Shown here one piece after another: positions 167 through 46,435 of a DNA stretch of 48,753 nt. Source of the DNA: Methanobacteriota archaeon. GTDB taxonomy: Archaea; Thermoplasmatota; Poseidoniia; Poseidoniales; Poseidoniaceae. Location: positions 5,233 to 53,985 of the forward strand of contig PBHR01000034.1 of assembly GCA_002720275.1 (NCBI GenBank). The letters run 5' to 3'. The position numbers were made by a program, and so were the translations under genes. Numbering within the stretch: the first letter of the stretch is position 1; each line of letters starts with the position of its first letter. The notes under the pieces were generated by a model, which saw only the letters and a list, made by a program, of their open reading frames with translations, had not been told where the DNA came from and searched no databases.

Positions 167-463
167 TCAAAGATTAGATTTAAGTGAAAACAATTTACTT
201 CTACCAGCATCTAAAACCGCTATTGCACTAACTGGGAATGGTTTTCCACAAACAGCACCAAGTTCCCTATTTACTACATTCACTCTATACATTGTAATTC
301 CAGAAAATTCAGCACCCAATTCAGTAACATAATCTTCTGGACAGTTCATAGATACTACAATCAGTTTTGCTTTCCCATCTGAGCAACTAGCTTTTGCCTG
401 TTTTTGCCCAAATATCATTGTTCCTGTTGAACATGCGTCTTTTAATTCTCTAAGTACATCCAT
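167..463 (-). CDS. rpl30e: 50S ribosomal protein L30e
   Basis: 98 aa with the L30e-like pattern GKAKLIVVSMNCPED ... ELGAVCGKPFPVSAIAVLDAGRS. It follows rpoA2, as in the conserved archaeal rpoH-rpoB-rpoA1-rpoA2-rpl30e order. Confidence 0.85.
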   Translation of the reverse strand: MDVLRELKDACSTGTMIFGQKQAKASCSDGKAKLIVVSMNCPEDYVTELGAEFSGITMYRVNVVNRELGAVCGKPFPVSAIAVLDAGRSKLFSLKSNL

Positions 464-476
464 TTCATCACCTCAT

Positions 477-2033
477 TTATTCCTCTGGAATATAATATAA
501 ATCAACACTTCCAGTCCCTAATGAAATAGGTTGACCAACAATAATATTTTCAGCAACACCAGTTAAATTATCAGTTTCACCAATAACTCCTGCTTTTAAC
601 AAGTGGTTAACTGTAACTTCGAAAGCAGCACGTGCAAGTATACTATGCTTAGTACCACTAACACCATGTCTTCCAATTGCTCTTACGGCACCTTCACTAG
701 TCATTACATCAGCAACCATCAGCAAATGCCTTAAATCTACATCAAGCCTTGCAGCATCTAAAGTTGCCTTTAATTCATTCATTATTGATTGTCTAGCCGC
801 CTCAATACCAAGATATTCATAAATTTCAATAATATTGTTTGTATATGTTTTACTTCTATCAATTCCTTCAACTTCACTCACACGAGCCAAATTTGAACCT
901 ATTGTTGAAATATAAAACTCTTCAGTTTGATCGTTTCTTTGAACATTTGCCCTTTCAATATTTGGAATCCCTTTTAACCTCAAATCGCGAACTTTATCCT
1001 CAAGTTGTAATAATTCCGTATATGATGGCGGTTCAGTATCCAATGTTTCCATATCTTCTTTTTTATGGACACCAGGAATAATCGTTATATTTCTCGGTTT
1101 TGATTCATTATCTACATCAATATACAATCTTAATGCCTTACCCAATTTATCTACTACTTCTCCTCCAGACATTCCTTTTTGCTTTAATACCGAAGGAAGT
1201 AATTTCAATGTCAATCTTCTTTGAGTAACGTCGGTTTGAATATCTGCAATATTCTTTGTTGTTGTTACTTCAAGACTTGCTGCTAATTTTTTAACTTTAT
1301 TTTCATTTACCTTGTAGTCGCCATCTAAATGAACAATCATAGTAGGTGTGTTAGGTTTTTTCCTAGCATCAACGATTTCAATAATTCTAGGTAGACCTTG
1401 GGTAACGTTTACTGTTGCTACACCAGCATAGTGGAAAGTACGCATAGTCATCTGTGTACCTGGTTCACCAAGTGATTGAGCTGTGATAATTCCAGCTGCT
1501 TCGAAAGGATCTACTTGTGCTGAAACAAATGCTTCTTTAGCCATTTTAACCATGTCTTTTGCCTGTTTTGCAGTAATCTTTGTTTGTCCCCTTTTAACTA
1601 AAGCTTCTGATAAATCCGCCACCACTCTTGCTGTCAATTGTACGCCTGCGACACTTTCATTTGCTTTTTGTAACACATCATAAAATTCGCCCTTTTCAAA
1701 AGAAGTTATATCATCCATTTTTTCTTCGGACTTATAAAAATCTAAATCTCTCTTAATGACTTTCTTTCTTGAAGTTCTAGTTACTTTTCTTCGAACAACA
1801 GTTGTTTCTCCACCATCAATACTAGAATCTCCTCTCCTCCCAGTAGCATAACTAACAATCATTTCATGGATTTTTTCTGCTATTTCGGAACTTGTTTCAC
1901 ATATTTTTGCAATTTGTGCTGAATCCAAAATCTTAACATCATCCCACTTACGATCATCGGCTAAATTATGAGCATAATCTTCTTCAATGCCCATATCCAT
2001 TAATTTTTTCTTTGTTGCACTCTTAACTACCAT
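477..2033 (-). CDS. rpoA2: DNA-directed RNA polymerase subunit A'' (Rpo1C) carrying a ~100-aa N-terminal extension
   Basis: Carries [22 protein letters not shown] and the C-terminal [17 protein letters not shown] motif. Its start overlaps the rpoA1 stop (ATGA at 2033). At 518 aa it is longer than the ~390 aa usual for archaeal A''. Confidence 0.95.
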
Positions 2034-5000
2034 CAGAAATCACCTTCCCCAGGGGTTTCTAAATCAAAACCATCATCTAATAATGACTCGAAATCCTTAT
2101 CTCCATGATCTTTGTAAGAATCAATATTTGTCAATTCACCAAAGGTTCCTAAAACGGTATCAACGATTACATCAATATTGACCGGTGAACCATGTGCAGA
2201 ACGGCATGGATCAACACCATCTTCTCCGTAACTAAACTGAATAATTCTATCAGCAGTATTTCTCACTGAACGTTTATTATCTGGAACAACCTTCAAATCA
2301 TCCATAGCATTAATCAATCTTCTTTGCATATAACCTGATTTTGAGGTCCTTACAGCAGTATCTACAAGACTTTCCCTTCCAGAAACTGAAAGCATAAAGA
2401 ATTCTGTTGGTTCTAATCCATGTTTAAAGGACGATGAAACAAAACCTTTCGCCTTAGCTCCCCTGGATCCTCTAGGGAAATGAGCAAGTACCCTATCTTT
2501 GTAACCTCTTTCTAATCTTTTCCCACGAACTTTTGCTTGACCTATAGACGCAGCCATCATAGTAAGGTTATCCATACTACCTCTAGCACCGGAAATTGCC
2601 ATGTTAACAGCAGAATTAAATCTTCCAGCCTTCAACAATTCTTCTTTAGCAATGTCTCCCGCTCTTTGTTTTCCTTGATCTAATGAAATCATAATATCTT
2701 CTTCAAGAGTTTCTATAGGTGTCCTTCCTGGTCGTACCTCATATCCTTTACCTGATTTTCCAAATTTTTGTAAATATGATTGTACTTCTTCACTTGCTTT
2801 GGTATTCTCTGCAATAATTCTCTCCATTGCATCATCAGATAAATCTTCATCATCAATTCCTGTTGTAAATCCTAATGAAGTACAAGCAGCAATTGAAAGT
2901 CTAGTGAAATCATCAAGGAATTGTGCACCTCTTTCAGAACCGTTTGTCTGAACAATCGCATCCAACAACCTACCATCTTCAGCACCTATTGAACGTTTAT
3001 CTAATGTTCCTGAAACAGTACCATCATGAACGTCAACTAAATCATTTGATCTACTTGTAAATTGAATTTTTATATTTTCAGGCAACAATAATGCCACTAA
3101 ATCATGTCCTCTAAATCCTTTAACAAGTTCTCCTTTGAACCCTTTCTTTGCTGCACTATCGATAATTGCACCCGTCTTTGAACACATGTCGATTTCTTTA
3201 GGCAAATCTCCAACCCATTTTACTGAGCTTAGAATTTGTAATGCATTTGATCTACGTACACCAACATCTTCTCTTGAAAGCATAAATGCACCAGAAATAT
3301 GGTCGTGAATTCCACCAATCACAGCACCTCCATATCTAGGAGAAAGTATATGCTCTTGCACTCTCATCAAAATTTTAGCCTCTGCACGAGCTTCTTCACC
3401 TTGAATAACGTGTAAATTCATTTCATCACCATCATAATCAGCATTATATGGTGTACAAACAGCCAAATTAAATCTAAATGTATGGCCTTTCATAACTCTT
3501 ACTTCATGAACCATCATAGACATTCTATGCAGAGAGGGTTGTCTGTTGAAAATTGAAACATCTCCATCAATCAAGTGTCTTTCCACAATTTGCCCTTCCT
3601 TTGGATTTCCATCTGCATCTATTGTTTCTAATCTATCAAATGAACGTGTTCTCTCATCATATTCATTCATAGGTGAACCACAGTGAGGACATTCTATTTC
3701 TAAATGTTCAGGATATGGTTGACCCATATTTTCTCTTTCCCAAATCCATCTTTGTTGCAATATCCCATCGGGATTATCTTCTTTCAATGGTTTTCCATTC
3801 TTATCAATACCTTCTAAATTCAACAAAGTTTTCTCCAAATCAACTACATATTTTTCATCAACAGTATTATCTAAATTTTTCGTTGTTTGTTTTCTCACAA
3901 CTAAACCTGGTAAAAAGTTAGGAGCAGACATAGCATCATCTAAGTCCGGACGCATACTAGATTCTGAAGTACAATCTTGATTTAAACACCTAAATCCTGC
4001 ATTAATGAATTTTGATCTATCTGTAATTCTAACTCTACGGCCGTCAGATCTTACAACATAGTTAACACCAGGATGTCGGTTTGGACCCCTAAGGATCATT
4101 TGTCTCATTTGTTCACGGTTTCTACTATTCACCCTAATTGGAACTGATAACTCCATTGCTACTTTTTCTGGAACTCCAACTTCATTAATACCTAAATAAG
4201 GGTCTGGTGAAATTACAGACCTAGCACAGAAATTAACACGTTTTCCTGAAAGATTACTTCTAAACCTACCTTCTTTACCTTTCAAACGTTGAGTTAATGT
4301 CTTTAGAGGTCTACCAGAACGATGTCTTGCTGGAGGAATCCCACTAGTTTGGTTGTCAAAATAAGTTGTAATGTGGTATTGTAACAATTCCCATAAATCT
4401 TCAACAATTAATTGTGGTGCTCCAGAATCACGATTCTCCCTCAATCTCTGATTAATCCTTAATACATCAACTAATTTATGAGTTAAATCATCCTCACTTC
4501 TATCTCCACTATCCAAAGTGATTGAAGGCCTTACAGTAATAGGAGGAACAGGCAATACTTTCAAAACGGTCCATTCTGGACGATTATTCTTATCCATCCC
4601 AATAAAAATTAAATCATCATTAATTATTCTTGTCAACCATTCTCTGATGTCTCTAGGATTTAATTTTCTTTCTGATTTAGCGCCTGTTTTTGTTTCGAAA
4701 CGTTCTTTAAATGTTGAGGGTTTGTCAATCATTATTTTTCCTTGCTCTGCTTGACAATGCATACAAATACTTGCTTTTTTACCAGAACATACTTTCTCTA
4801 TCTGTTTAATAACTTTTGTAAACTCTGATGAACCCACACCATGTTTTAACATAGTATCTGAAACTCTATTTCTCCAATAGTCTTGTTCTGACAATTCAGG
4901 ATTAGATGGGTGGGTTTCTTTCTTCTCATGAAGTAATATACGCCCACAAGTATTACATGTTGATTTTAATGCAGTTTTAATATTGTTAATAAAACCAATG

Positions 5001-5269
5001 TGAATTACTGGTAGCTCCAAAGCAATATGTCCAAAGTGACCTGGTGACTTATCATACTTACAATTATCAGTTGGACAAATCATGTTAGGTTCAATTACTC
5101 CCATCCTAGGATCCATTAGACCTTGTTTGAAAGCCCTTCCATCGTCTCTGTATGTATCTGCAGTTTTTACTTCAACTGCACTCATTTTTCTCATCTCTTG
5201 CGGATCCATTAATGTAAATCCGATACTTCCAATCCTTTTAGGAATCATTGATTGTGGGTTTCTGCTCAT
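2033..5269 (-). CDS. rpoA1: DNA-directed RNA polymerase subunit A' (Rpo1N)
   Basis: Has the catalytic [12 protein letters not shown] motif, [12 protein letters not shown], and N-terminal zinc motifs (CPTDNC...PGHFGHI, CNTC). Its start overlaps the rpoB stop. Confidence 0.97.
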
Positions 5270-8200
5270 TTTCGGTCCTCCAGTTTTAATCTCATAGCCA
5301 CCCCTAGTGACTTCATTTCATCTAACAATAATTTGAATGCATATGAGGTTTGAACTTTGTAAACTTCAGCACCCTCTCCATGAAGTGGACTAACATAAGT
5401 TTGTTTCTTAGGATCATACCAAGCAATATGTCCGCTCTGACCACAAACAAACATTTCAATACCATCACTTTCATCTAATAATCTATCTTTAATAACCATA
5501 GAAGCACCATGGGCAATCAAACAATCACGCTCCATTTCTCCAAATCTAAGTCCTCCTTGTCGGGCACGTCCTTCAGTAGGTTGACGAGTAAGAATTTGTA
5601 CTCTTCCTCTGCTTCTTGCATGAATTTTACCACTAACCATGTGATGTAATTTTTGATAATAAATCACACCTACAAATATGTCAACAGGATATATTTCTCC
5701 TGTTTCTCCATTATACATTGTTTCTCTACCAGAATGATGGAATCCATTATGAACTAAACCGTCTCTTAGAGATGATTCTTTTTCTCCAACAAATGCAGTT
5801 CCGTCAATAAAACGTCCTTCCATTGATCCTACTTTACCACCAATCATCTCCATTACATGTGCAACGGTCATTCTACTTGGAATAGCATGTGGATTTATAA
5901 TTAAATCCGGAACTACACCATCTCTTGTAAAAGGCATATCCTCTGGAGGAACTAATCTTCCAATTACACCTTTTTGACCGTGCCTACTAGCAAACTTATC
6001 ACCTACTTCTGGAATTTTGTTAGTCCTTACAACTGAACGAATCAATCTTCCGCTTTCAAGTGATTCTGTAACAAAAACATTTGAAACATGACCTTTTTCT
6101 CCATGCCTAATCAACATTGATGATTCTCTTCTCTCATGTGCTTGTAAAAATCCACCAGTTCCCGTTTCCTCAAGGAATCTTGGCGGACTTGTTTTTCCAA
6201 CAATTACTTCACCACCGGAAAGTTCAACTTCTGGAATAGACAAACCATCATCTTCCAAATGAGCATATGCTTCAGGTGTACGTAAACCTTTAACTTCTAC
6301 AAGACCAGTTCCAGGAACTTCAATCTCCTCAAATTGACCTCCTGGGTATCTTCTTCTTTCTGAATTATAGGTTCTTAAAAATGTAGATCTTCCAAGACCT
6401 CTTTCCACACTTGCTTTGTTCATAATTACTGCATCTTGCATATTATATCCATGATGAGACATTACTGCAACAACATAATTTTGACCACCTGGCCTTCTAA
6501 GGAATCCTGTAGTTTTCATAGCCCTTGTTCCTACAAGTGAATTTTGAGGGTAGTGTAAAACATGTAACCTTGTATCTGGCCTTAACATATAGTTTGAAGA
6601 GGGTAAACCAAGACTTTGCTTAACCATGGCAGTTCCACCAGTAACTCTTGGGGTAGAATTATGCTCAGGATAAGGAATCAAACTTGCACAAACACCCAAT
6701 ATTAATTGTGGATCAATCTCAAGATGAGTGTATTCGGAATTTAATTCAAGTTCTCCAGCATCATTTTCTTTTGTCCAAGTAAGTGGGAAGTCATGTTCCT
6801 CTTGAACAACATCTCCTGAAGGCAATCTTATCTCAACTGAAATTTTAGCAGTAGTGGCTCTATCTTCACCAATATTTAACCACGTCATTTTTGCTTGAGA
6901 TATAGGCAAACCAGATTTTGGCGAAAGTTGTGGTAAAATAAATGGCCTAGATGCAATATATTGATCTTCTTCTTCATCCGCATCTATCCATTCAACAAAA
7001 CCTCTACTAACTAAATCTTTGAATTCAATTTCCCTTGATGATAACTTTTGAAGTATCTCATTATTAACTTTCAAAGTTCCACCATCAATTACAAGTAAAG
7101 GCCTTAATATCCTACCTTTGTCAGTATTGATGAAAATATCTTTATTCTCAACATCATGCCTAATCGAAACTTCTGGGCGTATTCTACCTCTCCTTCTAGC
7201 ATTTTTAAACTGATTAACTAAAGATTTAGGCCTTTTATGTAAACCAAAAATATCTCCATCAACATGTATTCTTGAACCGTCAGACCAATCTTCTGGCATA
7301 AAGACATCCATTTCTTTTAACTGTAATTTTACATCTTCTACAGGAACGTCTTCAGAAACATCAATCATTTGTGCTGCATTTTTCACCAATCCGCAATTTT
7401 GACCTTCTGGAGTCTCATTTGGGCATAATCTACCCCATTGCGTTGGATGCAAATCTCTTGCTTCAAAATGTGGTTGACTTCTAACTAGAGGACTTGTTAC
7501 TCTTCTCATATGTGACAATGCTGAAAGGAATGTTGTCCGGTCCAATAATTGACTAACACCACTTCTTCCACCTACCCAATTTCCAGTTGCAAGAGCATGC
7601 ATTATCTTTGATGTTAATACATCAGGCCTCAAACAACTAGAAATTTTTAAATCTCTTTTTCGATTATGATGTCTTTCAAGTTGATATTTTAAATCTCTAG
7701 CTAATTGATTCATAGAGACTCTGAATAAATCCTCCATTAAATCTCCAGCCAACCTAACTCTTTTGTTCGCATAATGGTCCTTATCATTTGGTTTACGATC
7801 ATCAAGTGCCATTTCCAATACTTGACGAACAATACGTCCTAAGTATATCGCTTTTTTCATCCTAGCATCTTCATTATCTCCTAAATGAGGCAGTAATTCT
7901 CTATCTAACAATTGTTGAACTCTTGCTTCTCTAAATTCACGTTGTTGCCCTGCAGCAAATTTCTTCTGTAACCATTCCATTGCTGACTCTTGATCTTTTG
8001 ATTGTCCGTATTCTTCTTGATCATTTACTTCATTAATATTAGCTACAATATATTTGAATGTCTCATGTGGACCAGCAATTGCTCTAAAGATTTCTTGATC
8101 TTGAGAAATTCCTAACGCCCTCATCAATAAAACAACAGGTATTGCAGTAGTGCCAACTGTTGAAATTTTTGCCAATAGCATACCATCTCTACGTTTTTCA

Positions 8201-8934
8201 ACCGTTAATGGTTTCCTTACACCATCTTTTTGTGAGAAAATCTTAGCAACTTCAGTATTTTTAGTATAACGAGTATTTAATTCAACTGTAACCCTATTGG
8301 GTGCTAAATCTTCAACAGAAATTAAAGCCCTTTCAGTACCATTAATTATGAAATAACCTCCAGGATCCAAAGGATCTTCACCAGCTTTTTTCAGTAATTT
8401 ATTATATTTTTCTTTTTCTTCTTTTCCTTTATGTGGTTCAATAATCACATTTTCTTTAGAACCAATGTTGGCAGACCTAAATACGTGTCTTGGATGTACA
8501 TTGCATCTTTCAGAACGTACCATTATTGGCATATTACCAATTGTAATTGCTTTTTCAGCAGGTAAAGCAACACCGTCTTTGTAAATAGTACAATCCATTA
8601 AAATTGGGCTTTGATAAGTTAATTTTCTAAGTCTACATTCTACAGGAGTTGCTGAATGTTTAGCACCGTTTGCTTCTTTAACCACAGGCGTGTCTAATTT
8701 TATATTCTTAATTCGAACGTAAATTTCTTGATCAATAACATCAAGTTTTATGATTCCACCATTACCATCGTCTGGTTTCTCATCAGTACCAATTCTAATA
8801 TTTCGAACAATTCTTTCCATTCGACTTAATCTACCATCTCTAGGTGTAATACAATCATCAAAAGATGCTATCTGATGATTTACTAAACTACGATTTCTAA
8901 AATAAGATTCTACTATTTCCTTCATTTTTCTCAA
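5266..8934 (-). CDS. rpoB: DNA-directed RNA polymerase subunit B (unsplit)
   Basis: Carries GDKFASRHGQKGV, PSRMTVAHVMEM and RQPTEGRARQGGLRFGEMERDCL. It is a single 1222-aa ORF, not split into B'/B''. Confidence 0.97.
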   Translation of the reverse strand: MRKMKEIVESYFRNRSLVNHQIASFDDCITPRDGRLSRMERIVRNIRIGTDEKPDDGNGGIIKLDVIDQEIYVRIKNIKLDTPVVKEANGAKHSATPVECRLRKLTYQSPILMDCTIYKDGVALPAEKAITIGNMPIMVRSERCNVHPRHVFRSANIGSKENVIIEPHKGKEEKEKYNKLLKKAGEDPLDPGGYFIINGTERALISVEDLAPNRVTVELNTRYTKNTEVAKIFSQKDGVRKPLTVEKRRDGMLLAKISTVGTTAIPVVLLMRALGISQDQEIFRAIAGPHETFKYIVANINEVNDQEEYGQSKDQESAMEWLQKKFAAGQQREFREARVQQLLDRELLPHLGDNEDARMKKAIYLGRIVRQVLEMALDDRKPNDKDHYANKRVRLAGDLMEDLFRVSMNQLARDLKYQLERHHNRKRDLKISSCLRPDVLTSKIMHALATGNWVGGRSGVSQLLDRTTFLSALSHMRRVTSPLVRSQPHFEARDLHPTQWGRLCPNETPEGQNCGLVKNAAQMIDVSEDVPVEDVKLQLKEMDVFMPEDWSDGSRIHVDGDIFGLHKRPKSLVNQFKNARRRGRIRPEVSIRHDVENKDIFINTDKGRILRPLLVIDGGTLKVNNEILQKLSSREIEFKDLVSRGFVEWIDADEEEDQYIASRPFILPQLSPKSGLPISQAKMTWLNIGEDRATTAKISVEIRLPSGDVVQEEHDFPLTWTKENDAGELELNSEYTHLEIDPQLILGVCASLIPYPEHNSTPRVTGGTAMVKQSLGLPSSNYMLRPDTRLHVLHYPQNSLVGTRAMKTTGFLRRPGGQNYVVAVMSHHGYNMQDAVIMNKASVERGLGRSTFLRTYNSERRRYPGGQFEEIEVPGTGLVEVKGLRTPEAYAHLEDDGLSIPEVELSGGEVIVGKTSPPRFLEETGTGGFLQAHERRESSMLIRHGEKGHVSNVFVTESLESGRLIRSVVRTNKIPEVGDKFASRHGQKGVIGRLVPPEDMPFTRDGVVPDLIINPHAIPSRMTVAHVMEMIGGKVGSMEGRFIDGTAFVGEKESSLRDGLVHNGFHHSGRETMYNGETGEIYPVDIFVGVIYYQKLHHMVSGKIHARSRGRVQILTRQPTEGRARQGGLRFGEMERDCLIAHGASMVIKDRLLDESDGIEMFVCGQSGHIAWYDPKKQTYVSPLHGEGAEVYKVQTSYAFKLLLDEMKSLGVAMRLKLEDRK

Positions 8935-8942
8935 CTCCTTAA

Positions 8943-9563
8943 TTAACTTCCTTCGACTATCAATCTGTAAGCAACTGAAAGGCCTGCTGTCGGACTTGGC
9001 CTAGTCACTTTAACTACTCTATCTGCTAACCATCCAGCGGGAAGACCAGGATGATCTCTATCATCTTCTGCTGCACGTAACAATTCTTCTCTTTCTTCTG
9101 CTTCTTTCAATGCTTGAATCGCAGGATCTGTAATTAGAATTTTTGGCAATAACTCTTTTGCCAATCTTTCAGTTCCATCGAAATCGACTCTGATTAAATC
9201 CCAAGGGCTTAATTCTTCCAATTCCATTTCAATTGGGACCAATTCATGATGAGGAACCAATACATGATTCAACGGATTAAATTTAATTTCATGCTCTGGC
9301 ATATCAATTAAATCAATTTCCTTCATACTAATTGTTATTTTTCGACTTTTATTCCTTCGCCTGTTTGAACCAACTTCTTGTAGAACATTTAACACAGTTT
9401 GAAGCTCTTCATCATCACGAGACAAACCACATGCTTTAGCAATGTCATCACTTGACATTTGTTTAATGGCTGCCATGTTTCTATCAGTGGCTAATTTGTG
9501 TGCTAGTTCTTCGCGAACTCCTAGTTCAGTCAAGCGCTTCTTTGTAGCACTTTTTACAACCAT
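8943..9563 (-). CDS. rpoH: DNA-directed RNA polymerase subunit H (Rpo5) with ~94-aa N-terminal extension
   Basis: The C-terminal ~110 aa match the RpoH pattern (FNPLNHVLVPHHELV ... LPKILITDPA ... VVKVTRPSPTAGLSVAYRLIV). It is the first gene of the RNAP operon. Confidence 0.85.
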   Translation of the reverse strand: MVVKSATKKRLTELGVREELAHKLATDRNMAAIKQMSSDDIAKACGLSRDDEELQTVLNVLQEVGSNRRRNKSRKITISMKEIDLIDMPEHEIKFNPLNHVLVPHHELVPIEMELEELSPWDLIRVDFDGTERLAKELLPKILITDPAIQALKEAEEREELLRAAEDDRDHPGLPAGWLADRVVKVTRPSPTAGLSVAYRLIVEGS

Positions 9564-9797: not shown

Positions 9798-11279
9798 ATG
9801 AAATATGTTGAAAATGAAATAAAAAGAACTCTTTTTTCGCCTAAAAAACATACATGGTCATCACCATTAGGTGAAAAATATTCTCTTACCATACCAAGTA
9901 CCGTTTATCCACCAAGAGAAGATACTAATCTATTAGCAAATACGATATTGAATTTTGGATCAGGAGGTGGAAGAAAATTATTAGAAATCGGTTGTGGAAC
10001 GGGATTAATCTCTATCTTTGCTAAATCATTAGGTTGGGACGTTCTTGGATGTGACATTAATCCTCTTGCAATTGCAACTAGTAGAGGGCTTGCAAAAAAA
10101 TATAATTTTACAGATTTAAAATTTATAGAAGGAGGTATAGAGCCAAATTCTGAAACTACATCAAAAATATTTAAAAATGGTCCTTTTGACATGATTTTGT
10201 GGAATTTACCCTACCTTGAAAAACCAAATGAAAATGAATTGTTAGGGCCTTTGGAAGATGCCTCACTATCAAATATTGGAAACCAAAAATTACATGAAAT
10301 TTTATTAAAAAAAATAGATTATGAAAACGCTCTATCTAAAGAAGGGGTTGTTATTTTAATTCACAGCGATAAAGGACCGGGAAGAATATTATCATCAGAA
10401 TGTAGAAATCTTGGTTGGGCTTGTAAAAGCATTAATCAAAAAATCCTTGAAGATGGTGAAAAATTGCATGCAACATTAATTTGGAAACCGTGGTTTTTTA
10501 TTGAAAATATAGATTTAAATGAAGTTAAGTCGACAAATACTTACTTGCTAGAATCCAACTTACCCATCGGAACTCTAGCAACAACAAAGAATCAAACCAA
10601 GGGCAGAGGCCAAAGAAAAAATAATTGGATACATTTCAAAGGAGGTTGGTGCGGAAGCTGGTTAATTGATCTTGAAGATTCTACACCACAAATAATTCAA
10701 GCAAAAGCAGCTTTAGCTCTAATTGAATCTATCGCTGCAATAAATGGTGACGAATTGCCAACATTTGATTATGCATCAATGGCAAAATTTTTAGAAAATA
10801 ACATTTCAATTAAATGGCCAAATGATATAATGCTAGAGGATAAAAAAATAGCTGGGATATTATGTGAGGCAAAAACTACGGGCTCTAAAACTAAATGCGT
10901 AATTGGAATTGGATGTAATTTAAGAGATGAATCTCTAATGATAAAATCAAAATTACCCAATACAACCTCATTAGATGAGTTTAAGTTGATAAATAATGAA
11001 AAATGGACAAGAGTAATGCATGCATCAATTGCATCGAAATTTGAAAAACACGAAGGCGTAAATAAAGATGAAGATTCAAAGATAATTAACAACTGGTGGT
11101 TATCGATGGAAAAATTCAATAAAACCCATTTCATCATAATAGATTCAAAAAAATATCAAATCAATGGACTTTTGGCAGATGGCGGAATAAATTTGATTTC
11201 AACAAATAATAATTTGAATTCGGAAAAGAAATGTGACGAGAGTTATAATTTAAAATGGGAAAAAATATCATTTAATTAA
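9798..11279 (+). CDS. Fusion protein: HemK/Mtq2-like SAM-dependent methyltransferase (aa 1-~225) + biotin--protein ligase BirA catalytic domain (aa ~235-493)
   Basis: N-terminal part has VYPPREDTNLL, LEIGCGTGLISI (SAM motif I) and WNLPYLE (an NPPY-type motif with P->L). C-terminal part has KGRGQRKNNW (GRGRxGRxW-like) and KWPNDIMLEDKKIAGILCE (BPL signature). Confidence 0.75.
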   Translation: MKYVENEIKRTLFSPKKHTWSSPLGEKYSLTIPSTVYPPREDTNLLANTILNFGSGGGRKLLEIGCGTGLISIFAKSLGWDVLGCDINPLAIATSRGLAKKYNFTDLKFIEGGIEPNSETTSKIFKNGPFDMILWNLPYLEKPNENELLGPLEDASLSNIGNQKLHEILLKKIDYENALSKEGVVILIHSDKGPGRILSSECRNLGWACKSINQKILEDGEKLHATLIWKPWFFIENIDLNEVKSTNTYLLESNLPIGTLATTKNQTKGRGQRKNNWIHFKGGWCGSWLIDLEDSTPQIIQAKAALALIESIAAINGDELPTFDYASMAKFLENNISIKWPNDIMLEDKKIAGILCEAKTTGSKTKCVIGIGCNLRDESLMIKSKLPNTTSLDEFKLINNEKWTRVMHASIASKFEKHEGVNKDEDSKIINNWWLSMEKFNKTHFIIIDSKKYQINGLLADGGINLISTNNNLNSEKKCDESYNLKWEKISFN

Positions 11280-33918: not shown

Positions 33919-34416
33919 ATGAGGCCATCGAGAGGGGTAAGCATGGGGATAGAATGGGAGCCACTAATTGCTGAATCAGAAGACAGTAGTGAAAATGACA
34001 TCTTAACACCCAATCTGCATAGTTTATCTGTATCTCCAGAAGAACTACACAGTGCATTTTTTGATCAAGCACAACATTTGACAGATGCAATTGTAAATCA
34101 AAACATAGTTATAGATATTTCAGGAGAAATTCCTGAAAAAGCAAATGAAAATCAAAGAATGATATCTATTGAATCAATTGCAAATGAATTCAACGGCGCT
34201 CTTAACGAAACTACATTACAAATACCATTCAAAGGTATTTCAGAAGAAAACATCAATATCGAATATTCAAATATTGATTCAAATTGGGCAATAAAACTTT
34301 CAATAAGTTCTTCTGATTTAAATCAAAATGAGATTGTGCGTACTTTTTTACTGCCGAAAACGGCTGATGAGCCGACTGCAAATTGGTCATCCAATAACTT
34401 AAGTATTAAATTCTAA
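33919..34416 (+). CDS. acidic protein with an Hsp20/alpha-crystallin-like C-terminal half
   Basis: I prefer the ATG at 33919. LQIPFKGISEENINIEY and RTFLLPKTADEPTANWSSNNLSIKF resemble the ACD patterns xDlPGxxxedIxV and RxfxLPxxvdxxxixAxxxnGvLxI. Confidence 0.4.
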   Translation: MRPSRGVSMGIEWEPLIAESEDSSENDILTPNLHSLSVSPEELHSAFFDQAQHLTDAIVNQNIVIDISGEIPEKANENQRMISIESIANEFNGALNETTLQIPFKGISEENINIEYSNIDSNWAIKLSISSSDLNQNEIVRTFLLPKTADEPTANWSSNNLSIKF

Positions 34417-37400
34417 GCTTCCACTTCTGGAACTGGATCTTCTCTACCACCCTTTCCAACATTCATTCTCACTAATTCACTTTGAACTCCCTCTAAAGCA
34501 GATTGCGCTCTTAATGAATCTTGAGTATTCAATTCATGTCTTGAATATCTTGCTTCTTCAAACACATTGTCTAACTCTATCAGTGAATCTTCTCTTATTG
34601 GAAGTGCACTCCTTAATGCCATTTCGAATTCTCTTACAGTTTCAAAATCTCTTCTCAAATATCCGTGCTTTGTTAACACTCTACAAAGATCTTCGTAGCA
34701 ATGGAAAATTGATTCTCTGATTTCATCTCCATGTGCCAACAATTCTGCCGTATAACTAAATATACTCGCAATTTCATCTAATACATCTTGTCTTCTCTTT
34801 CTATACCAGAATATTCCAACTCCTGCTAATACAATCAAAGCCAATAAAGATGCCCACACAAAGGTAGATGATTCCCCTTCAGTGTCAATTGACTGGTATA
34901 CTAAGGCTTCTGGAACTTTAGCCTGCAATGTAACTAATGATTTATTAGAAATTCTAGCGTCATCAGAAGATATCTCGATATTTACAGAACCAAAAGAGGT
35001 TGAATCAGAATAAGGAGGAGTGTTTTCCAATGTGATTTCAGCAACTCCAAATTCATCAGTGATTAACGTCCTAGTAATTAGCTGCCCTGATTCGTTAGAT
35101 AGTGTCAAAATCACACTTATTCCTTCTAGTGGTTGCCCAGTATCATCGGCAATTACAGAAATATTACCATAAACATCATCCCTTTCACCCAAAATAATTG
35201 GTTCTAAAGTAGGTGTGAATGTAGCATCAACCTTTAACATCATAGAGTAATTCGTAGATTTAGACAATAAATATTCATCATCAGATCCAGGGAACTCAAC
35301 TACAAGAATAATATTTCCAGGAGTTAAAGTCGTAGGTGCTTTTGCGCTAATGTAAAACAATTGCGTTCCGATAACTGTCCAATTTAATTGGCTTGAAATT
35401 AATGTTCCATCAGAAGTCAAAAGTGAAATTGATAAATTTGAAAATTTCAAATTGTTTCCACCAATCTCAGAGATTTCTCCATAAATCTCAATTGGGAATT
35501 CATCAGAATCTCTAACACTAAATTCAGATGATAAATCAGTAAATATCACCTCTACTTCTGACCAAGCATCTACATCTGATTCTTGAGAACTACCTACATG
35601 AGTAATTGTTCCATCAAATTCAATTAAAATTGTATGTTCTCCTCTTTCTAAAGACATCTCCACAGGTAATGAATAAGTCCAAGTTCCATCTGAACTTGTT
35701 AATATTATAGTGTCTTGTAAAATACCATTCAAATAAACATGTAGTGTTTCATTAGCCAATCCGATATTTGACAAATCATCAGCATCATATAATATGCCCG
35801 AAATATTCCAAGAATCACCTCTTACAACAGAAGTTTCTTCTAAACTAAACTCTAAAGCACTTCTATGAGCAACGAATAATGGTGTTTCCGCATAACTCTC
35901 TCGATAATAACCCTGATCAGGCGCCCTAACACCAACTGTATGCTCTCCCCAATTTGTACCTATTGGAATTGTCCAAACAAAAGACCAGGTGCCCTCAATA
36001 CTACTATTGAGAATTCCTATTTCAACACCATCAACAATTATTCTTAATTGATGTGCATCTAGTGGACTACCAAGATTATCTGATATTGTACCAGAGATTG
36101 TCACATCATCTCCCAAAGTTTGAGGTGATAATTCATTAATAGTTACTGAAGTTATACTATATACATACCATTTTGATACGGTTTCTGAACTTAAATTATA
36201 GTCATCACCATCAAATCTTAACGTAATATCTAATTCTCCTAATGCTTGATTTTCAGGAACTCTTAATGAGATTGTAAATAACCCATATTCATTAGTTGTA
36301 ACGAAATAATCCGCTGAGCCATCATTTTCTCCAACAAAGACTTGAATTGTACGTCCAGGTAAAACCCTATTTTGGATATCGACCAATGAACCATTAATGA
36401 TTAAGTCTGAATCCCTATCAACTTGACTTCCTTGTGGTGTAATTACTACCACTTCAGTTGGAACATAAACCTCAAATTCTTGATCTGGAACTGGATGTGT
36501 TGAATTCCAATAAAATTCGGGATTTTCAGAATCTCCACTAGCATAAGGAGCAACCCATAGGAATCCACCACTAAATTCAACCCTCATATTATGAATTCCT
36601 GCACTCATCCATTCGGGTAATTCATATTCAATAGAATAAAAACCAGTATTTCCATCACTTATTGCTGTAGCCATAGGTAAATCATCAACATATAATCTTA
36701 CCAAACCACCAGAAGGAAGGCCATCATCACCTAAAAGTGGATTTCCAGCATCATCAAGCAAAGTACCATTTACCCAAATATAATCGCCAACAACCATACT
36801 ACCTTCTACTGAATCTAAACTCAAATCCGTATGGGCTAATACTACGAAATCAACAGAGGTATTTCCTCCAATAATCCCCACACTTCCAAAGGTAGCAACA
36901 TTTCCAATCCATGTAGCATGTAATGTAAATATTCCTGGATCTACATCTTGAGGTATATTGATTGTAACTTCACCTAAACCTGAAGCATTGGTGATTAAAG
37001 TACCAGTTTCTAATGTAGTCAATAATTCTACATCAACCATTGCATTAGGTATTGGTTGTCCTGCATTATCAAAGACTCTCACAACAACATCAATACTACC
37101 ACCCCTATCTTGAGAATCACTGTTTTTCAAATTTCCAGGTTCAAGGAAATCAAGTACAGAATACCCTTGAATATCTATCGTATCAAATACAGAACTGTTA
37201 ATGTAAAATGGCACTTGAGGATTATATGCTGCTCTAATCTCATGTGTGCCTGCTGAAGTTGTTGGTTCAACATAAACTGTAGCATACCAAGTGCCATTAG
37301 GATTTATTTGGCCATCCAAATATTGAACTGATTGACCATCCATAGTAATCTGTATTTGTGCGATTAAAGGCACTCCATTCCTATTCATCAAGGTTGTACC

Positions 37401-40400
37401 ATTGTCTGATTCTATTGTACCAGAAAGATTGAAACTACCACCAGCAATCGGATTTTCAACTATTGGATCCATCACCAATACAGTTAAAGAACGAACAATA
37501 GTAGATGGAAGGTTCTTAGATGTTGGATGAACATCATTTGAACCATTGTAAACTAATGAAATTACAATTGTGCCTAATGGTTGATCATAAGGAATTGTAT
37601 ATGTAAAACCAACACCACCTGATGCATTTGTAACCTGTCCTGGTAACCAAGTCTCATCAAATAACATAAGTACAGGTTTATTCTTCTGACGAACATCAAT
37701 AGGAGTATCAAATGCACAAGCAGAACACGTAGCAGATGTCTCTACTAATTTTGCAAATACTTCTAATGTATCACCTCTATTAATTATAATTGGAGCTGTG
37801 TGGTTTAATTCAACAAATGCACTAACTCCCGTAACATGAATTGGAGCTTGTGATGAACTCGGCAAATAATAGATATTTGAGCCATCAATAACTTCAACGA
37901 CTACAGTTCTATCACCACTTGCTACCCCATCAAGAGATGGGTCAGTTTGAGATGAAATGTTAAACCAACCTGTCGCATTTGTTGTATATGTTGCAACTAA
38001 AGCTTCATCTTCATCAATTAAAAAGTAAACTTTTAGCGATATTGGGCCATTAAAAATTCTAGTATTATCTTCTCCATCCTCAACATAACCTGCAACATTA
38101 AATGATGCTCCAGCGGTCACTTCAGGTTGAATCCAATCAATAACAACTGCTGAAGGAACTTGTATCGTTACATCTACAAACGTTTGATTTCCTAACCACC
38201 TAGCGCCACCTATATCTGTAACTAAATCTGTCAAATCATCATCAATATAGATTCTCAATACATAAGTTCCTGGTGCTGTACCTCCAGGCACTGTCCATGT
38301 GAAATTAGCAGAACCTCCCTCAACACTAGTTCCTCCTCTACCGTCTGAAATAGTCCATTCTTGAGTAACTTCATCTGGTATTACTTGTTGACTTCCATTC
38401 CAATCAAAAATTGCATGAATTGTCCTATCAGAGATTCTAGTATTATTTCCAATATCTATTGCAAATACTCCAAATTCCAAATCACCACTTAGTGGTGCAT
38501 TCAAGACATTAGCACCCGATACTAAATCACCCTCTGAATCTACAACCTCCAAAGAAAACTCTGACTCCAAACCTATAGAGAGGTTTAATGGTCTTGGCAG
38601 CAAATAATATGCAGGTTCAATCATTCCTTCCGCTGTTAAAGAAATCTGATAAATTCCTGCAGCTAATCCTGAAGGCATTACAAAAGAAATGTTAAATTCA
38701 CCAGTATTTGTATCTAGGGACCCATTTCCAATTATGTTATCCTTTAATTGATTTTGTCCCCAAATCTGAAGAACAAATTCTGTCCCATTACCGGTAATAG
38801 GGCCTGGTGGATTTTTTTGTTGATCTATCAATTGTCCTGTGAGATATCCAGTAGTTCCAATATGTACCCAATTTGAACTTAATGTGACATCTAATTCTGC
38901 ATTACCTTGTATTCTGATAAATTCTTGGCCGCTAGATGGTTCATATAATTCAGAACCTGCAAACGAGGTTTCAAATAAATAATCTCCCGGAAGCAATGAA
39001 TCTAACGTAGACCAACTAACAGATATTGGATTTGAAGGGTCTACACTTGTATTAATTGATGCTCCATCAAAGAAATGTTCAAATGTGCCTGTTAAATCTA
39101 AATCAGTACTGATTCCTCGATGATCTTTTGCAGTTACAGCAACACTAGCATCAGAGCCCCTCATCTGTGGATTTGCAAAAATTTCAAAAATTAAATAACT
39201 TCTTAGAAGATAATCATCGGGTAAATCAGCGTCATCAGTAGTATCTAAAGTAGTGGGATAAAATCTACCCCTAATATCTACATTCCCAGCTGGAATATTT
39301 ATGTCTGAAGCATTAAGTTGATGAATAATAGAAAAACTACCGTTTACTGATTGATTAAATACGACTAAGTAATCTAAACCAGAACCATTAGTTCTAATTC
39401 CTAATTCAAGTAACCCATCCATTGGAGAGGGGGTTGCACCTGCACTATTTGCTGTACCATTCACATATACTACATTTCCAACCAATAATCTAGAACTATT
39501 TGTAGGGTCATTTCCCTCAACAGTAGCTTCAACATCAGGAGCTAATGAAACTGTAGTATTAACTAAAAGTGATGTTGGACGGAAATGAATTGGAGATCCC
39601 GGATACGCTTCATCAGGGTCTTCCCATCCTGAAAACGTGACTGTAAATTGTAACGGGCCAAGTGGTTCAGAAGGGTCTAAAGAAAGTTGGAATGACCAAG
39701 CCCCTCCTTTACCAACATCAGTTGTCAATGATTCTACACCAGTTACTTGTGAAACATAATCTAATTGCACTGTAAGATTGGCCATTTCTGAAACATCCAA
39801 AAATGGACTGTTTTCATAAGACAAAGTTCCACTAAAGTCAGTAGTTGCTCCTTGGCCTATCGTAGTAGAAGATGTATGAACAAGAACACTGTCATCTGTA
39901 ACATTGATATGGCCAGGGTATTCATGAATTCGCGGCGGTATATAAGTATCCGCTGAATTAACTACAACTATTTTTTGAAAACCCGGTAAAATTGCATCAG
40001 AAGGAATTCCTGTAATTATAAAATGTCCCGTTTCATTAGTAATCGCTGCAGTTCCAATCAACATTGATGAATCTGTAACTGGTGATGATTCAGGATCTGC
40101 AGGTGATGGTGCAAGATAACCTCTTACAGTATTACCTTCAATTCCTGTTCCATTACTAGAATAAATCAAATCACCTTCAACTGTTAAATTAACGGAACCA
40201 TCTCTATCCCATTCATTTGGAATAAAGGTCATATTTACTAATTCAATTTCCAATGGTTGAGGGCATGGATTAATTGGAATCCAACCCATATCTGCATTTG
40301 TAGAACTACTACGAAGATGTACTTCAGCCCACACAGCACCATCAGAACTAGATACCTCATAACCATCTAATGTTTGAACACCATTCAGATACCCTGAAAC

Positions 40401-43471: not shown

Positions 43472-46435
43472 TTAGTCTTCTTCAACCAATTCTACTTCTT
43501 CATATACTACTGGTTCAGGAAGTTCTTCTTCCACCTCAGAATCAAGTTCTAAAATGTCTAAATCCCCCTCATCGCCAACATCTATCAATTCTTCAGGAAC
43601 ATACTCTATTTCTGTAACTGCTCCCCTGCGTGAAAACCAAAACACAAACATCAATACAACTGAACCAAGTACTCCAAGAGTTACTGGATCAGGTTCACTA
43701 AACAATTCTGATTGAATTCTACAAGAAATACTTTCTACATTTGTTTGAATTCTCACGGAATGTGTGGTTGTATATTCATCACCATAGGCTTCGTTCATAT
43801 CCAAAGGTTTAGCAGTAATTTCAAAATCATAAACTTCATTATGCCTCATGCAAGTAGGTGAATCTATTCTAATTGTGAAATTCTTTTCACTAAATGGTCC
43901 AACAGTTAACAATTCTCCACCGTCTTCAGATTCTAAATTTACTTTCCAATTTTCTCCAATTGATGATTCTAATTTTAGTAATACCAATGTTTCTACATTT
44001 GCAACATTATATACTCTCATTTCGATTTCTTCAAAAGAATTAATTCCGATTAACTCGTTCGCTGAAATTTGAGTGATCTCAATTTGGGGTTCATCTTCCC
44101 CCACAAATATCGTTAAAGGCATGTCAAAATATTTTGGATCAACACCAGAGCCTGCTTCGACTTCTTCAACTATCCTCAGATAAATCGTATGATTGCCAGA
44201 AAGCATACCCATGCTTGGAGTAACTAATATTTTTATTTCTGCAGAGCCTCCAGAAGATAATTTTACATTAGAGGTTAAAGAACTATTACTATCATAAATT
44301 TCAAAATCCCAAGCTGCATAGTAATCTTTCTGAGAAACTAATTTACCATCAGGAGTTAAAATATCTTTATCCAATAAACTTGGATTTTTAATTTGAAAAG
44401 TAGTTAATTGTGTATCTGATTCCGTAACAGAACTTGTGACTTTTAATCTAAATGTTTCATCATTAAATTCAGGGTTTTTACATGTAGAAATTTCTACATT
44501 AACATAACCCAATGGTGCTGCGTCACAATCATAAATAACTGTAGAATGAACACCGAATGTACGTTGCACTGTAAATGAAATTGTAGCCCTCAATGTCAAA
44601 TCACTAGCACTAGTTACTTCCATAGTTATTTTTCCAATATCAGGCGCTTCTCTATCAATCGGAGGGTATACTTCAATCAAGATTGTTTCAACTGCATTAG
44701 AATTTACATCTCCTGAAGGAAATGATCCTTGTTCTTTCACAATCGCTTCACCTGTATTATTATCCACAAATGCAGCGTCCCATTGGTCTGGAATTTCTAA
44801 AAACTTCATTCTAAAATTATCTACATCAAAACCAGTATTTCTCACATCAAGATAAAATTCCCCAATTCCGTCAAAATTTACAAAATTAGAAAAATCTTCA
44901 TCAAAATCACCAGATAAATCAACAGAATCTCCAATCTGAATTTGATGTTCTGCATCTTCAAAAAGAGAAAGTCTTGGGTCAGAATATACATCTATTTCTT
45001 CAACACCTAGTAAAAGTTGTGAAACATCTGTAACTTGTGAATTATTTACCTTGGGTACTGCTATAACATTAATATTTGAAGGTGTAGATGACATGTCTTC
45101 ATCTGGTGCTTTAATCAATAATGTTGGTTTAACTTGAGTTCCTCCATAATCAAGTTGATAACCACCAACGGGTTGATCAAATTCTACTTGCCAATCTGAA
45201 GACAAAGGTGGTTGAAGTGATAATTCAACTGACATCTCATTACTAGAATAACCAATGTGTGTTAAAGAAAACTCTAACCTACTTGTTTGCCCTGGTGCCA
45301 CAAGTAATGTCTCTCCCTGATCATCTCCTAATTCAAAATCAATTCCATAAGTATGGGAAATTATTGGTTCATGAGTAAATGTCACAGGTTGGTCATGCTG
45401 AAGATCTTTTACTCTTAACTCAAGTGGATATGTCCCAGCTTTTAGCCCTCCCTTCTCATAATCATAAACTACATTACCAACTAATCCACCATTATCTAAA
45501 ATTAAATCATTATTAGAGAACGTGTATGAAAATTCCTCAACACCTTCAATTCCGTCAACATCATCAATAAACAATTCAATTTCAGAAATATCTGCTCTTC
45601 CAAAAGCACTTCTAACATCTACAGAAATTTGAATTCTCCGATCTTCATCAGAATCATGAGGATACCAATCTAATGTTTCTACATCATTCCAACCGGCACC
45701 CTCTTTGTGAACTTTGAACGAACTACCTGCTAGAGTATTCGTTCTAACGCTAAGATATGTTTCCTGATTATCATTAGAAATGTCTCCGAAAAAGATTTTT
45801 ACATCGCATCCAGAATCACCGAATCCGCCTGAATCGCAACTATTTGTAGACACTATTTCCAATTCTACCTTTAAGTAACTTTGAGACTCTACTAAAAAAG
45901 TATTTACATTTTCAAAAACAATTTTTTCATCATCGGGGTTAGATTCATCGCATGAATCTGTTCCGAAAAAGCCATTGCACGGATTATCTAACTCTTCGGT
46001 CTGTGTAGAAATAATGGTATTACCACTCATTAATCTTACATCCATTTCGGCCGATGCTCCATCTGGTCCAGAAAATTCATAAAATACATTGAAATCAATT
46101 TCATTAGAAACACCACTTATATTAATATCAGATAGTAAAAGTGGTGTTATAAATACCCCCGTAGAATCAATAATGCTTATTTGTGATTGTGAACCACTAG
46201 TTGGTTCACGAGTGGTGATTTTGCCATCGGCATCCATCCCCGAGGATATATCATCTTGTGTTAACTCTTCAAAATAAAATCTGTAATCTTGATCAGCGGA
46301 ATTTGAAAATTTAATTGGAACGATTTCTACTAAATTGTTATCATTAGTTTCTGGTTGAATAAGTGTAGAAAAAATTGAACAAGCAAACATTAAACATAGC
46401 ACTAATGCCTTTGATTGGTAAGATATACGTGACAC
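43472..46435 (-). CDS. 987-aa surface protein: signal peptide, repeated CARDB/NEW3-like beta-sandwich modules, C-terminal TM and acidic tail
   Basis: Signal ALVLCLMFACSIFSTLIQP, and a C-terminal TM LGVLGSVVLMFVFWF followed by SRRG and an E/D-rich tail. Recurrent xxW(Q/D/K)VxF modules include SSDWQVEFDQP, IPDQWDAAFVD and IGENWKVNLES. Confidence 0.85.
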   Translation of the reverse strand: MSRISYQSKALVLCLMFACSIFSTLIQPETNDNNLVEIVPIKFSNSADQDYRFYFEELTQDDISSGMDADGKITTREPTSGSQSQISIIDSTGVFITPLLLSDINISGVSNEIDFNVFYEFSGPDGASAEMDVRLMSGNTIISTQTEELDNPCNGFFGTDSCDESNPDDEKIVFENVNTFLVESQSYLKVELEIVSTNSCDSGGFGDSGCDVKIFFGDISNDNQETYLSVRTNTLAGSSFKVHKEGAGWNDVETLDWYPHDSDEDRRIQISVDVRSAFGRADISEIELFIDDVDGIEGVEEFSYTFSNNDLILDNGGLVGNVVYDYEKGGLKAGTYPLELRVKDLQHDQPVTFTHEPIISHTYGIDFELGDDQGETLLVAPGQTSRLEFSLTHIGYSSNEMSVELSLQPPLSSDWQVEFDQPVGGYQLDYGGTQVKPTLLIKAPDEDMSSTPSNINVIAVPKVNNSQVTDVSQLLLGVEEIDVYSDPRLSLFEDAEHQIQIGDSVDLSGDFDEDFSNFVNFDGIGEFYLDVRNTGFDVDNFRMKFLEIPDQWDAAFVDNNTGEAIVKEQGSFPSGDVNSNAVETILIEVYPPIDREAPDIGKITMEVTSASDLTLRATISFTVQRTFGVHSTVIYDCDAAPLGYVNVEISTCKNPEFNDETFRLKVTSSVTESDTQLTTFQIKNPSLLDKDILTPDGKLVSQKDYYAAWDFEIYDSNSSLTSNVKLSSGGSAEIKILVTPSMGMLSGNHTIYLRIVEEVEAGSGVDPKYFDMPLTIFVGEDEPQIEITQISANELIGINSFEEIEMRVYNVANVETLVLLKLESSIGENWKVNLESEDGGELLTVGPFSEKNFTIRIDSPTCMRHNEVYDFEITAKPLDMNEAYGDEYTTTHSVRIQTNVESISCRIQSELFSEPDPVTLGVLGSVVLMFVFWFSRRGAVTEIEYVPEELIDVGDEGDLDILELDSEVEEELPEPVVYEEVELVEED

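Follow-up and report, generated by a model that had tools for sequence, protein, structure and literature searches.

An archaeal RNA polymerase operon with two extended subunits

We analysed a stretch of 48,753 nucleotides (nt) from GenBank assembly GCA_002720275.1 (contig PBHR01000034.1, positions 5,233 to 53,985 of the forward strand), belonging to an archaeon of the order Poseidoniales (Marine Group II). The whole stretch is called the window below, and coordinates refer to it unless another locus is named. Its left end is an archaeal RNA polymerase operon on the minus strand, in the order rpoH-rpoB-rpoA'-rpoA''. Two products of this operon, subunit A'' and subunit H, open with paralogous copies of one small module, and the same module heads many other proteins on contigs that look virus- or mobile-element-like. 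The operon and the parts of the two extended subunits are as follows, with lengths in amino acids (aa) and the evidence for each part in brackets (HhH, helix-hairpin-helix; dN/dS, ratio of nonsynonymous to synonymous substitution rates; pLDDT, per-residue confidence of the AlphaFold model; K+R and D+E, fractions of basic and acidic residues):

8943-9563, minus strand: rpoH (subunit H/Rpo5), 206 aa
9372-9563, minus strand: RpoH N-terminal module, codons 1-64, paralog of the A'' module (BLASTP, AlphaFold, dN/dS 0.07)
9288-9371, minus strand: RpoH linker GSNRRRNKSRKITIS..., codons 65-92, predicted disordered and basic (pLDDT <50 at residues 68-103)
8946-9287, minus strand: canonical Rpb5_C/subunit-H domain of RpoH, codons 93-206, with a ~30-aa acidic helical insertion
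5266-8934, minus strand: rpoB
2033-5269, minus strand: rpoA'
2031-2035, minus strand: TGATG, the rpoA' stop codon overlapping the rpoA'' ATG by one base (open reading frame (ORF) coordinates and sequence)
477-2033, minus strand: rpoA'' (subunit A''/Rpo1C), 518 aa
1842-2033, minus strand: A'' N-terminal module, codons 1-64, predicted five-helix (HhH)2-type domain (AlphaFold, Foldseek, dN/dS 0.14)
1734-1841, minus strand: A'' linker, codons 65-100, predicted disordered and basic (pLDDT <50 at residues 67-89; K+R=0.31)
1638-1733, minus strand: A'' codons 101-132, lineage-specific helical segment ahead of the canonical start (AlphaFold model)
167-463, minus strand: ribosomal L30e/L7Ae-family gene, same operon

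The product of rpoA'' matches Pfam RNA_pol_Rpb1_5 (PF04998, E=1.4e-49) and passes the NCBIfam equivalog TIGR02389 (425.6 bits vs. a cutoff of 420.65). Positions 2-365 of the 367 in this model cover A'' residues 133-513, and residues 1-132 lie outside it. The usual length of A'' is ~370-390 aa. An earlier note on this DNA, made from the sequence alone, had described a long extension of A'' ending near residue 105; the extension is present, its boundary lying at ~130 aa, where TIGR02389 begins. Between linker and canonical start, two helices are predicted (residues 102-114 and 118-127) in a segment that is kept among orthologs. The linker itself varies among orthologs in both length and sequence, and its basic character, which the earlier note had pointed out, is borne out by its composition and low pLDDT.

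RpoH residues 95-202 match Pfam RNA_pol_Rpb5_C (PF01191; 41.3 bits vs. a cutoff of 23.5, E=1.3e-10), and the AlphaFold model of the protein finds the archaeal subunit H chains 8cro_H, 9bct_H and 4qiw_H with a Foldseek probability of 1.00. Its score against the NCBIfam equivalog PRK09570 is 45.1 bits, under the cutoff of 83, which we attribute to the insertion and the extension. RpoH is itself unusual, a point beyond the earlier note: the canonical domain is displaced to residues 93-204 by the 80-position PRK09570 model (95-202 by the 73-position Pfam model), and it holds an acidic insertion of ~30 aa (9024-9125, codons ~147-180; a predicted helix at 147-166, then EDDRDHPGLPAGW) that is extra relative to these family models of 73 to 80 positions. 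Many Poseidoniaceae orthologs have another 10-aa insertion and reach 216 aa. In the literature, archaeal subunit H is said to have no N-terminal extension (PMC3906176). The linker of RpoH is likewise basic (K+R=0.26 over residues 65-95), so that in the models each module is joined to the body of its subunit through a basic, predicted disordered linker of ~30-35 aa.

Paralogy, translation start and selection

Residues 1-48 of A'' and RpoH align without a gap and are identical at 25 of the 48 positions (52%; BLASTP, E=1e-12), confirming the residue-by-residue likeness that had been noticed earlier. When each module was searched by tblastn against the six frames of the window, the other copy was the sole match (E~1e-11; the next had E=0.23). 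Similarity detectable by BLAST spans 48 aa, and the predicted folded domain ~64 aa. The DNA of codons 1-48 is 58% identical, with third codon positions at 42% and near saturation, so the pair is not an assembly repeat, again as the earlier note had held. The third-position divergence also rules out conservation at the DNA level, as in a recombination cassette or regulatory element.

A scan with one genome per species returned 174 A'' relatives, of which the best 80 loci were used for conservation; nearly all are labelled Poseidoniales, Poseidoniaceae, Poseidonia or with generic Marine Group II names, and the closest is 99% identical. The module was in frame in all 77 rpoA'' genes whose start was recovered, from an ATG overlapping the rpoA' stop, and in all 46 rpoH genes reached, and its orthologs are 78-79% identical. 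Neither the window nor the ~1.2 Mb of DNA flanking these loci in the 80 genomes yielded a further copy. Identity between the H and A'' modules is the same within a genome (51.1%) as across genomes (51.2%), so neither concerted evolution nor gene conversion has acted and the duplication is older than the radiation of the sampled lineages; a recent duplication is thereby ruled out. Purifying selection acts on both copies: by pairwise Nei-Gojobori estimates, dN/dS over codons 1-64 amounts to 0.14 in A'' and 0.07 in RpoH. The old duplication kept under selection that the earlier note proposed, and the conservation in orthologous rpoA'' genes on which it made that proposal depend, are therefore both upheld. 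Both modules also occur in a divergent lineage (L095), in the same operon and beside the same upstream neighbour, with an RpoH of the type '...LADDANMDAIK'. That neighbour, divergently upstream of rpoH (9798-11279, plus strand), encodes a protein of 493 aa in which a class I methyltransferase domain is fused to a BPL_LplA_LipB (biotin/lipoate protein ligase) domain, and is found upstream of rpoH in L095/L096 as well.

The start of rpoA'' at the module is supported at several levels. The TGATG overlap is a typical coupled start. In metatranscriptomes, contigs with a sequence identical to that of the window span 1838-2000 and cross the rpoA'/rpoA'' junction at 1942-2037 and 2008-2087, and a third, at 1960-2124, crosses it with 11 mismatches; these contigs show the module region in RNA, with the reservation that such libraries can contain DNA. 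An internal start codon near residue 106 is ruled out, since the Met at this site is not conserved (K-M, K-L, K-I and K-S occur there in orthologs) and the codons ahead of it are under the protein-level constraint given above. Several further metatranscriptome contigs (runs X3 and X1) match only the ~33 nt at 1929-1961 and depart from the window to either side; their probable source is rpoA'' of other strains or other expressed module-bearing genes in the same samples.

Predicted fold of the module

AlphaFold models were made from ortholog alignments of 30-32 closely related sequences. In A'' the module is predicted to form helices 3-13, 18-24, 30-34, 38-45 and 49-63 (pLDDT ~88-90), and in RpoH helices 5-13, 18-24, 30-34, 38-45 and 52-66 (pLDDT 82-87). 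Both models fit the plan of an (HhH)2 domain, namely, helix-hairpin-helix, connector helix, helix-hairpin-helix. The most probable Foldseek matches of the A'' module are to (HhH)2 domains, those of FANCM/FAAP24, RAD51 paralogs, the RAD51 N-terminal lobe, NusA and XPF (probabilities of 0.99 for 4bxo_A, 0.97 for 9q2a_B and 0.95 for 4mtn, all with E of at least 0.67). Superposition on the RAD51 N-terminal lobe 8xbw_L gives a TM-score of 0.68 and a root-mean-square deviation (rmsd) of 2.1 over 56 columns, the E-value not being significant. For RpoH, the best match beyond subunit-H/Rpb5 chains is the C-terminal (HhH)2 domain of UvrC (2nrv_A, probability 0.80, rmsd 2.6), and SAM domains are found as well.

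The hairpins depart from the G-h-G form by which (HhH)2 domains are recognized together with an HhH profile match: hairpin 1 reads G-I/V-x, and hairpin 2 is G-h-S in RpoH and the glycine-free C-E-T-D-S in A''. In composition the module is net acidic, with K+R 0.14 and D+E 0.20 in A'' (net charge ~-4) and K+R 0.16 and D+E 0.17 in RpoH (~-1), and the linkers that follow are basic (K+R 0.26-0.31).

Other proteins carrying the module

A profile of the 64-aa module, built from an alignment (A4) of 23 sequences of both paralogs, detected no more than 207 proteins at E<=0.001 among 1.84 billion representative proteins, a narrow distribution. A'' and RpoH, whole or in fragments, account for many of these, and a large share are other proteins. 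These others open with MVVKSATKK(K/R)LMDLG..AH.LA.DRKW..VK and then continue into unrelated sequence; their lengths run from 116 to 1292 aa, nearly all are without a Pfam domain, and most of their modules are nearer the A'' type. Clustering of the parts after residue 48 gave at least 12 multi-member families unlike A'' or RpoH and ~10 singletons, i.e., more than 20 unrelated families. Genes of such non-polymerase carriers, with those for three accompanying functions on L098 and L082, are:

L081 1884-5762: non-polymerase module gene
L082 4519-5532: non-polymerase module gene
L084 283-960: non-polymerase module gene
L086 2244-3098: non-polymerase module gene
L089 10001-10564: non-polymerase module gene
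L091 10001-10483 and 10534-11007: two adjoining module genes, side by side in L091/L092
L093 10001-10648: non-polymerase module gene
L097 10001-11242: non-polymerase module gene
L098 3681-4694: non-polymerase module gene
L098 7074-8027: TFB homolog
L098 58-963 and L082 900-1805: PriS-like primase
L098 8177-8752: Holliday-junction endonuclease

The contigs that carry these genes consist mostly of orphan genes lying in one direction. On L091/L092 (contigs of 61 and 160 kb) the module genes are accompanied by genes for Mom, an ERCC4 nuclease, PCNA, ribonucleotide reductase and ParA; on L093/L094 (90 and 69 kb) by class II ribonucleotide reductase, PCNA, endonuclease VII, ERCC4, a FEN-type exonuclease and UvdE; and on L089 (155 kb) by three N6/N4 methyltransferases. 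On L082/L098 (8 and 30 kb) we find a PriS-like primase with the motif GSKGFHVW, a Holliday-junction endonuclease, a helicase and, on L098, a full-length homolog of TFB/TFIIB (its score of 363 bits with the TFIIB model falls slightly short of the subfamily cutoff of 384 bits); since it encodes this homolog, the 30-kb element brings its own transcription initiation factor. Contexts of this kind look virus- or mobile-element-like. Magroviruses, the viruses of Marine Group II, are marked by genomes of ~100 kb with a caudovirus-type capsid, portal and terminase module and a replisome of archaeal type. They carry a sliding clamp, nucleases and, in group B, ribonucleotide reductase (PMC5434244); the gene content of the 60-160 kb carrier contigs agrees with this, and their identity as magroviruses could not be confirmed.

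One carrier is of another kind. P0287 (851 aa, L085 1012-3567) has N-terminal zinc fingers, a module of the RpoH type at residues 92-147 and an AAA_15/AAA_21 ATPase domain that matches the PADLOC defence families NsnB (E=2e-38), AriA, AbiLi, GajA and Old; a role as decoy or sensor is possible. The genes next to it encode no known domain.

When A'' and RpoH are compared with 49 non-polymerase carriers, positions 2-9, 11, 21, 22, 24, 25 and 27 prove near-invariant throughout. The resulting pattern, VVKSATKK-L...AH-LA-D, corresponds to helices 1 and 2 of the first helix-hairpin-helix and includes several charged or polar residues, and the second half of the domain is variable, most so in the putative viral proteins. 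Over the first 11 codons of 13 host and virus-type genes, amino-acid identity is 88% and third-position identity 46%, showing that the constraint is on the protein, not the DNA, and that the sharing does not reflect recent transfer.

What the module may do

We are highly confident of the descriptive core, namely, that subunits H and A'' bear two paralogous copies of a Poseidoniales-specific, (HhH)2-like module that is also common to virus- or element-like proteins. Its function is a more tentative matter, and the reading to which we incline, at even odds or somewhat less, is that of a docking handle specific for one conserved ligand and copied by viruses. The module would be a tethered handle that recognizes a single ligand, most likely a protein surface, which might belong to the partner module (by pairing), to the polymerase itself or to a transcription factor; weak non-specific contact with nucleic acid may come from the linker and the first helix, both of them basic. 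By copying the handle, viruses or mobile elements would deliver effector domains of their own to the same ligand and hence to the transcription machinery. Docking is favoured by the acidic composition, by the glycine-free acidic hairpin 2 of A'', by the near-invariant run of eight residues and by reuse of the module on unrelated effector-like proteins. The Foldseek neighbours FANCM/FAAP24, XPF and the C-terminal repeats of NusA agree with it, being (HhH)2 domains of the protein-pairing sort. Indeed (HhH)2 domains often pair: XPF-ERCC1 and FANCM-FAAP24 heterodimerize, and NusA AR2 binds the bacterial alpha subunit C-terminal domain (alpha-CTD). In the architecture of Pol II, the shelf module includes both Rpb5 and the counterpart of the A'' N-terminal region, and a linker of ~30-35 residues could reach across tens of angstroms.

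Several results pull the other way. As to the fold, the assignment rests on AlphaFold models from closely related sequences, and no Foldseek E-value of the module reaches significance (all are at least 0.67), which we ascribe to the shortness of the domain (~60 residues). No Pfam domain was found on the module when both subunits were scanned to E<=1, HhH families included (a weak Crp-family hit at RpoH 36-49, below threshold, was ignored), and the module profile gave no meaningful match among PDB sequences (the sole matches, one to a designed repeat protein and one to a mitochondrial protein, ran through short, low-information stretches and were dismissed). Given these E-values and the absence of a Pfam or PDB profile match, the term 'HhH-like' used in the earlier note is accepted at the level of fold, where five helices and (HhH)2 neighbours stand behind it, and not as membership of an HhH family. 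As to the carriers, the viral nature of their contigs is judged from gene content alone. The stretches examined, of +/-10 kb around them, showed neither a capsid nor a terminase gene; the copy of IMG/VR searched with the module alignment and a viral carrier returned pattern matches, none of them confirmed; INPHARED gave no match to the module or to a carrier-contig PCNA, and only generic phage reductases to the ribonucleotide reductase; ten large orphan proteins of the carrier contigs fell into no PHROGs family; and none of the 44 relatives found by homology search with the carrier-contig PCNA gave a virus name. As to the ligand, helix 1 (KSATKKKL) is basic, as is the linker, and (HhH)2 domains that the model resembles (those of UvrC, RAD51-N and XPF) do bind DNA.

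A bolder form of the docking idea, which is possible but which we hold with clear doubt, has the modules of H and A'' pair with each other or share a site on the enzyme as plug and socket, with dozens of virus or element protein families inserting their effectors into host transcription through plugs of the same kind, and at least one host defence ATPase, the OLD/AriA/GajA-like P0287, using its RpoH-type module as a built-in decoy to detect them.

The earlier note had suggested instead that each module is a putative non-specific DNA-binding module. Set out fully, this has (HhH)2 domains on basic tethers at the jaw side gripping downstream or upstream DNA, in a way similar to Rpo13, the Rpb5 jaw domain or bacterial alpha-CTD, and viral proteins using the domain simply for DNA. 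The predicted fold, the basic first helix and linker and the DNA-binding neighbours (UvrC, RAD51-N, XPF and the FANCM-FAAP24 complex bound to double-stranded DNA) are all compatible with it. So is the site: two structural studies (PMC2675907; PMC2847245) place subunit H close to downstream DNA and find, where the Rpb5 jaw is missing, a positively charged groove, filled by Rpo13 in Sulfolobus. Nonetheless the balance of D+E over K+R in A'' speaks against a generally basic surface, hairpin 2 of A'' is acidic and has no glycine, no HhH family is matched even at E<=1, and a run such as VVKSATKK that stays near-invariant over two paralogs and dozens of viral families would be unusual for a non-specific binder. 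Charged conserved positions and a domain heading more than 20 unrelated virus- or element-type families likewise point to a specific ligand. The suggestion was thus not borne out as stated, and we consider it unlikely.

Quite improbable is a third possibility, that the N-terminus is a localization or packaging tag with no action on transcription, comparable to the capsid-targeting sequence of phage T4. On virus-like contigs, a conserved N-terminus of ~45 aa precedes C-terminal parts of many unrelated kinds, and its extreme end is the best conserved, which would suit such a tag. However, the host has it on precisely two subunits, both of the same enzyme, and no other gene of the window or the 80 flanking loci bears it; it is predicted to be a folded domain rather than a short peptide; and neither a prohead protease nor capsid genes were seen next to the viral carriers. 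The rest of the probability we assign to something not yet thought of. Finally, an extension that is not real (an internal start at Met ~106, an assembly or annotation artefact, or recent gene conversion) is already effectively refuted, the presence of that Met in the A'' of the window being outweighed by its replacement with Leu, Ile or Ser in orthologs, the in-frame module of 77 out of 77, the low dN/dS with near-saturated third positions, the equal paralog identity within and across genomes and the RNA contigs over module and junction.

Relation to known systems

Among known domains, the module is structurally closest to the (HhH)2 domains of XPF/ERCC1, FANCM/FAAP24, RAD51/RadA-N, UvrC-C and NusA AR1/AR2, in its five predicted helices and its best Foldseek neighbours. 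It is acidic, as are the NusA acidic repeats, and like XPF-ERCC1 and FANCM-FAAP24 it comes as two related copies that could pair. It differs from these domains in having no profile match, in hairpins that depart from G-h-G, in an N-terminal helix that is its most conserved part and in its fusion to RNA polymerase subunits and to viral proteins.

The functionally nearest analogy is bacterial alpha-CTD, which also provides each enzyme with two small helical domains of HhH type on flexible linkers. Alpha-CTD is a contact point for DNA and for regulators, and its interaction with NusA AR2 is a contact between two (HhH)2 domains. Unlike the module, it stands at the C-terminus of alpha (the homolog of Rpo3/11) and on identical chains, whereas the modules are paralogs on H and A''. 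No alpha-CTD chain was among the listed Foldseek matches, and there is no evidence of common descent.

Rpo13 and the N-terminal jaw of Rpb5 resemble the module as lineage-specific additions by subunit H/Rpb5 on the DNA entry side. To our knowledge neither is common to viral proteins. Neither is duplicated on the largest subunit. The Rpb5 jaw has an unrelated fold, and RpoH has no match to Pfam RNA_pol_Rpb5_N; the Foldseek rows for eukaryotic Rpb5 (chain E) with a probability of at least 0.9 span ~105-130 columns, which fits the C-terminal domain alone. In Sulfolobus, Rpo13 fills the groove of the missing Rpb5 jaw and has a lysine-rich tail, basic and disordered as are the linkers here, which has been proposed to touch downstream DNA (PMC2675907). 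It is nevertheless a separate helix-turn-helix subunit, while the module is fused and has no gene of its own. No Rpo13 chain was among the listed Foldseek matches, the Sulfolobus entries 2waq, 4ayb and 7ok0 being matched through chain H.

A last comparison is with viral proteins that bind RNA polymerase, such as ATV RIP/ORF145, T7 Gp2 and T4 AsiA. If the docking reading is right, the carriers would likewise be viral proteins that reach the host polymerase, and one carrier element encodes its own TFB. The known binders are single dedicated proteins without homology to a polymerase subunit; here, a homolog of a polymerase appendage would be placed on many effector domains, with binding the conjectural step.

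Novelty and significance

In full-text literature searches, neither the extension nor its duplication nor its occurrence in viral proteins turned up, and a 2026 review of archaeal small subunits mentions neither Poseidoniales nor an extended Rpo5. A preprint on a 'Charybdis element' concerns different elements, of 4.6 kb. Neither lineage-specific polymerase appendages nor the fold itself is new; the novelty lies in the paralogs on two subunits and in their sharing with viral proteins.

The Poseidoniales are an abundant, uncultured order of ocean archaea, and the same tethered domain on two subunits, under strong selection, changes the architecture expected of their transcription machine. Because neither the Marine Group II host nor its viruses are in culture, the interplay of virus and host in transcription is an otherwise closed question, to which a module common to virus- or element-type proteins and to a defence-type ATPase offers a testable entry. 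The opening MVVKSATKK... also makes a compact sequence marker that could tie orphan viral contigs to Poseidoniales hosts. Should the plug-and-socket idea be true, a small domain would lie at the centre of an arms race between viruses and some very abundant archaea of the ocean.

Other genes in the window

Far from the operon, the minus strand holds an ORF of 2990 aa (34413-43385) with a transglutaminase core, macroglobulin MG2/MG4, Big_1 and DUF4129 domains, adjoined by one of 987 aa (43472-46435) that has no Pfam match. The two look like a large surface-protein locus.

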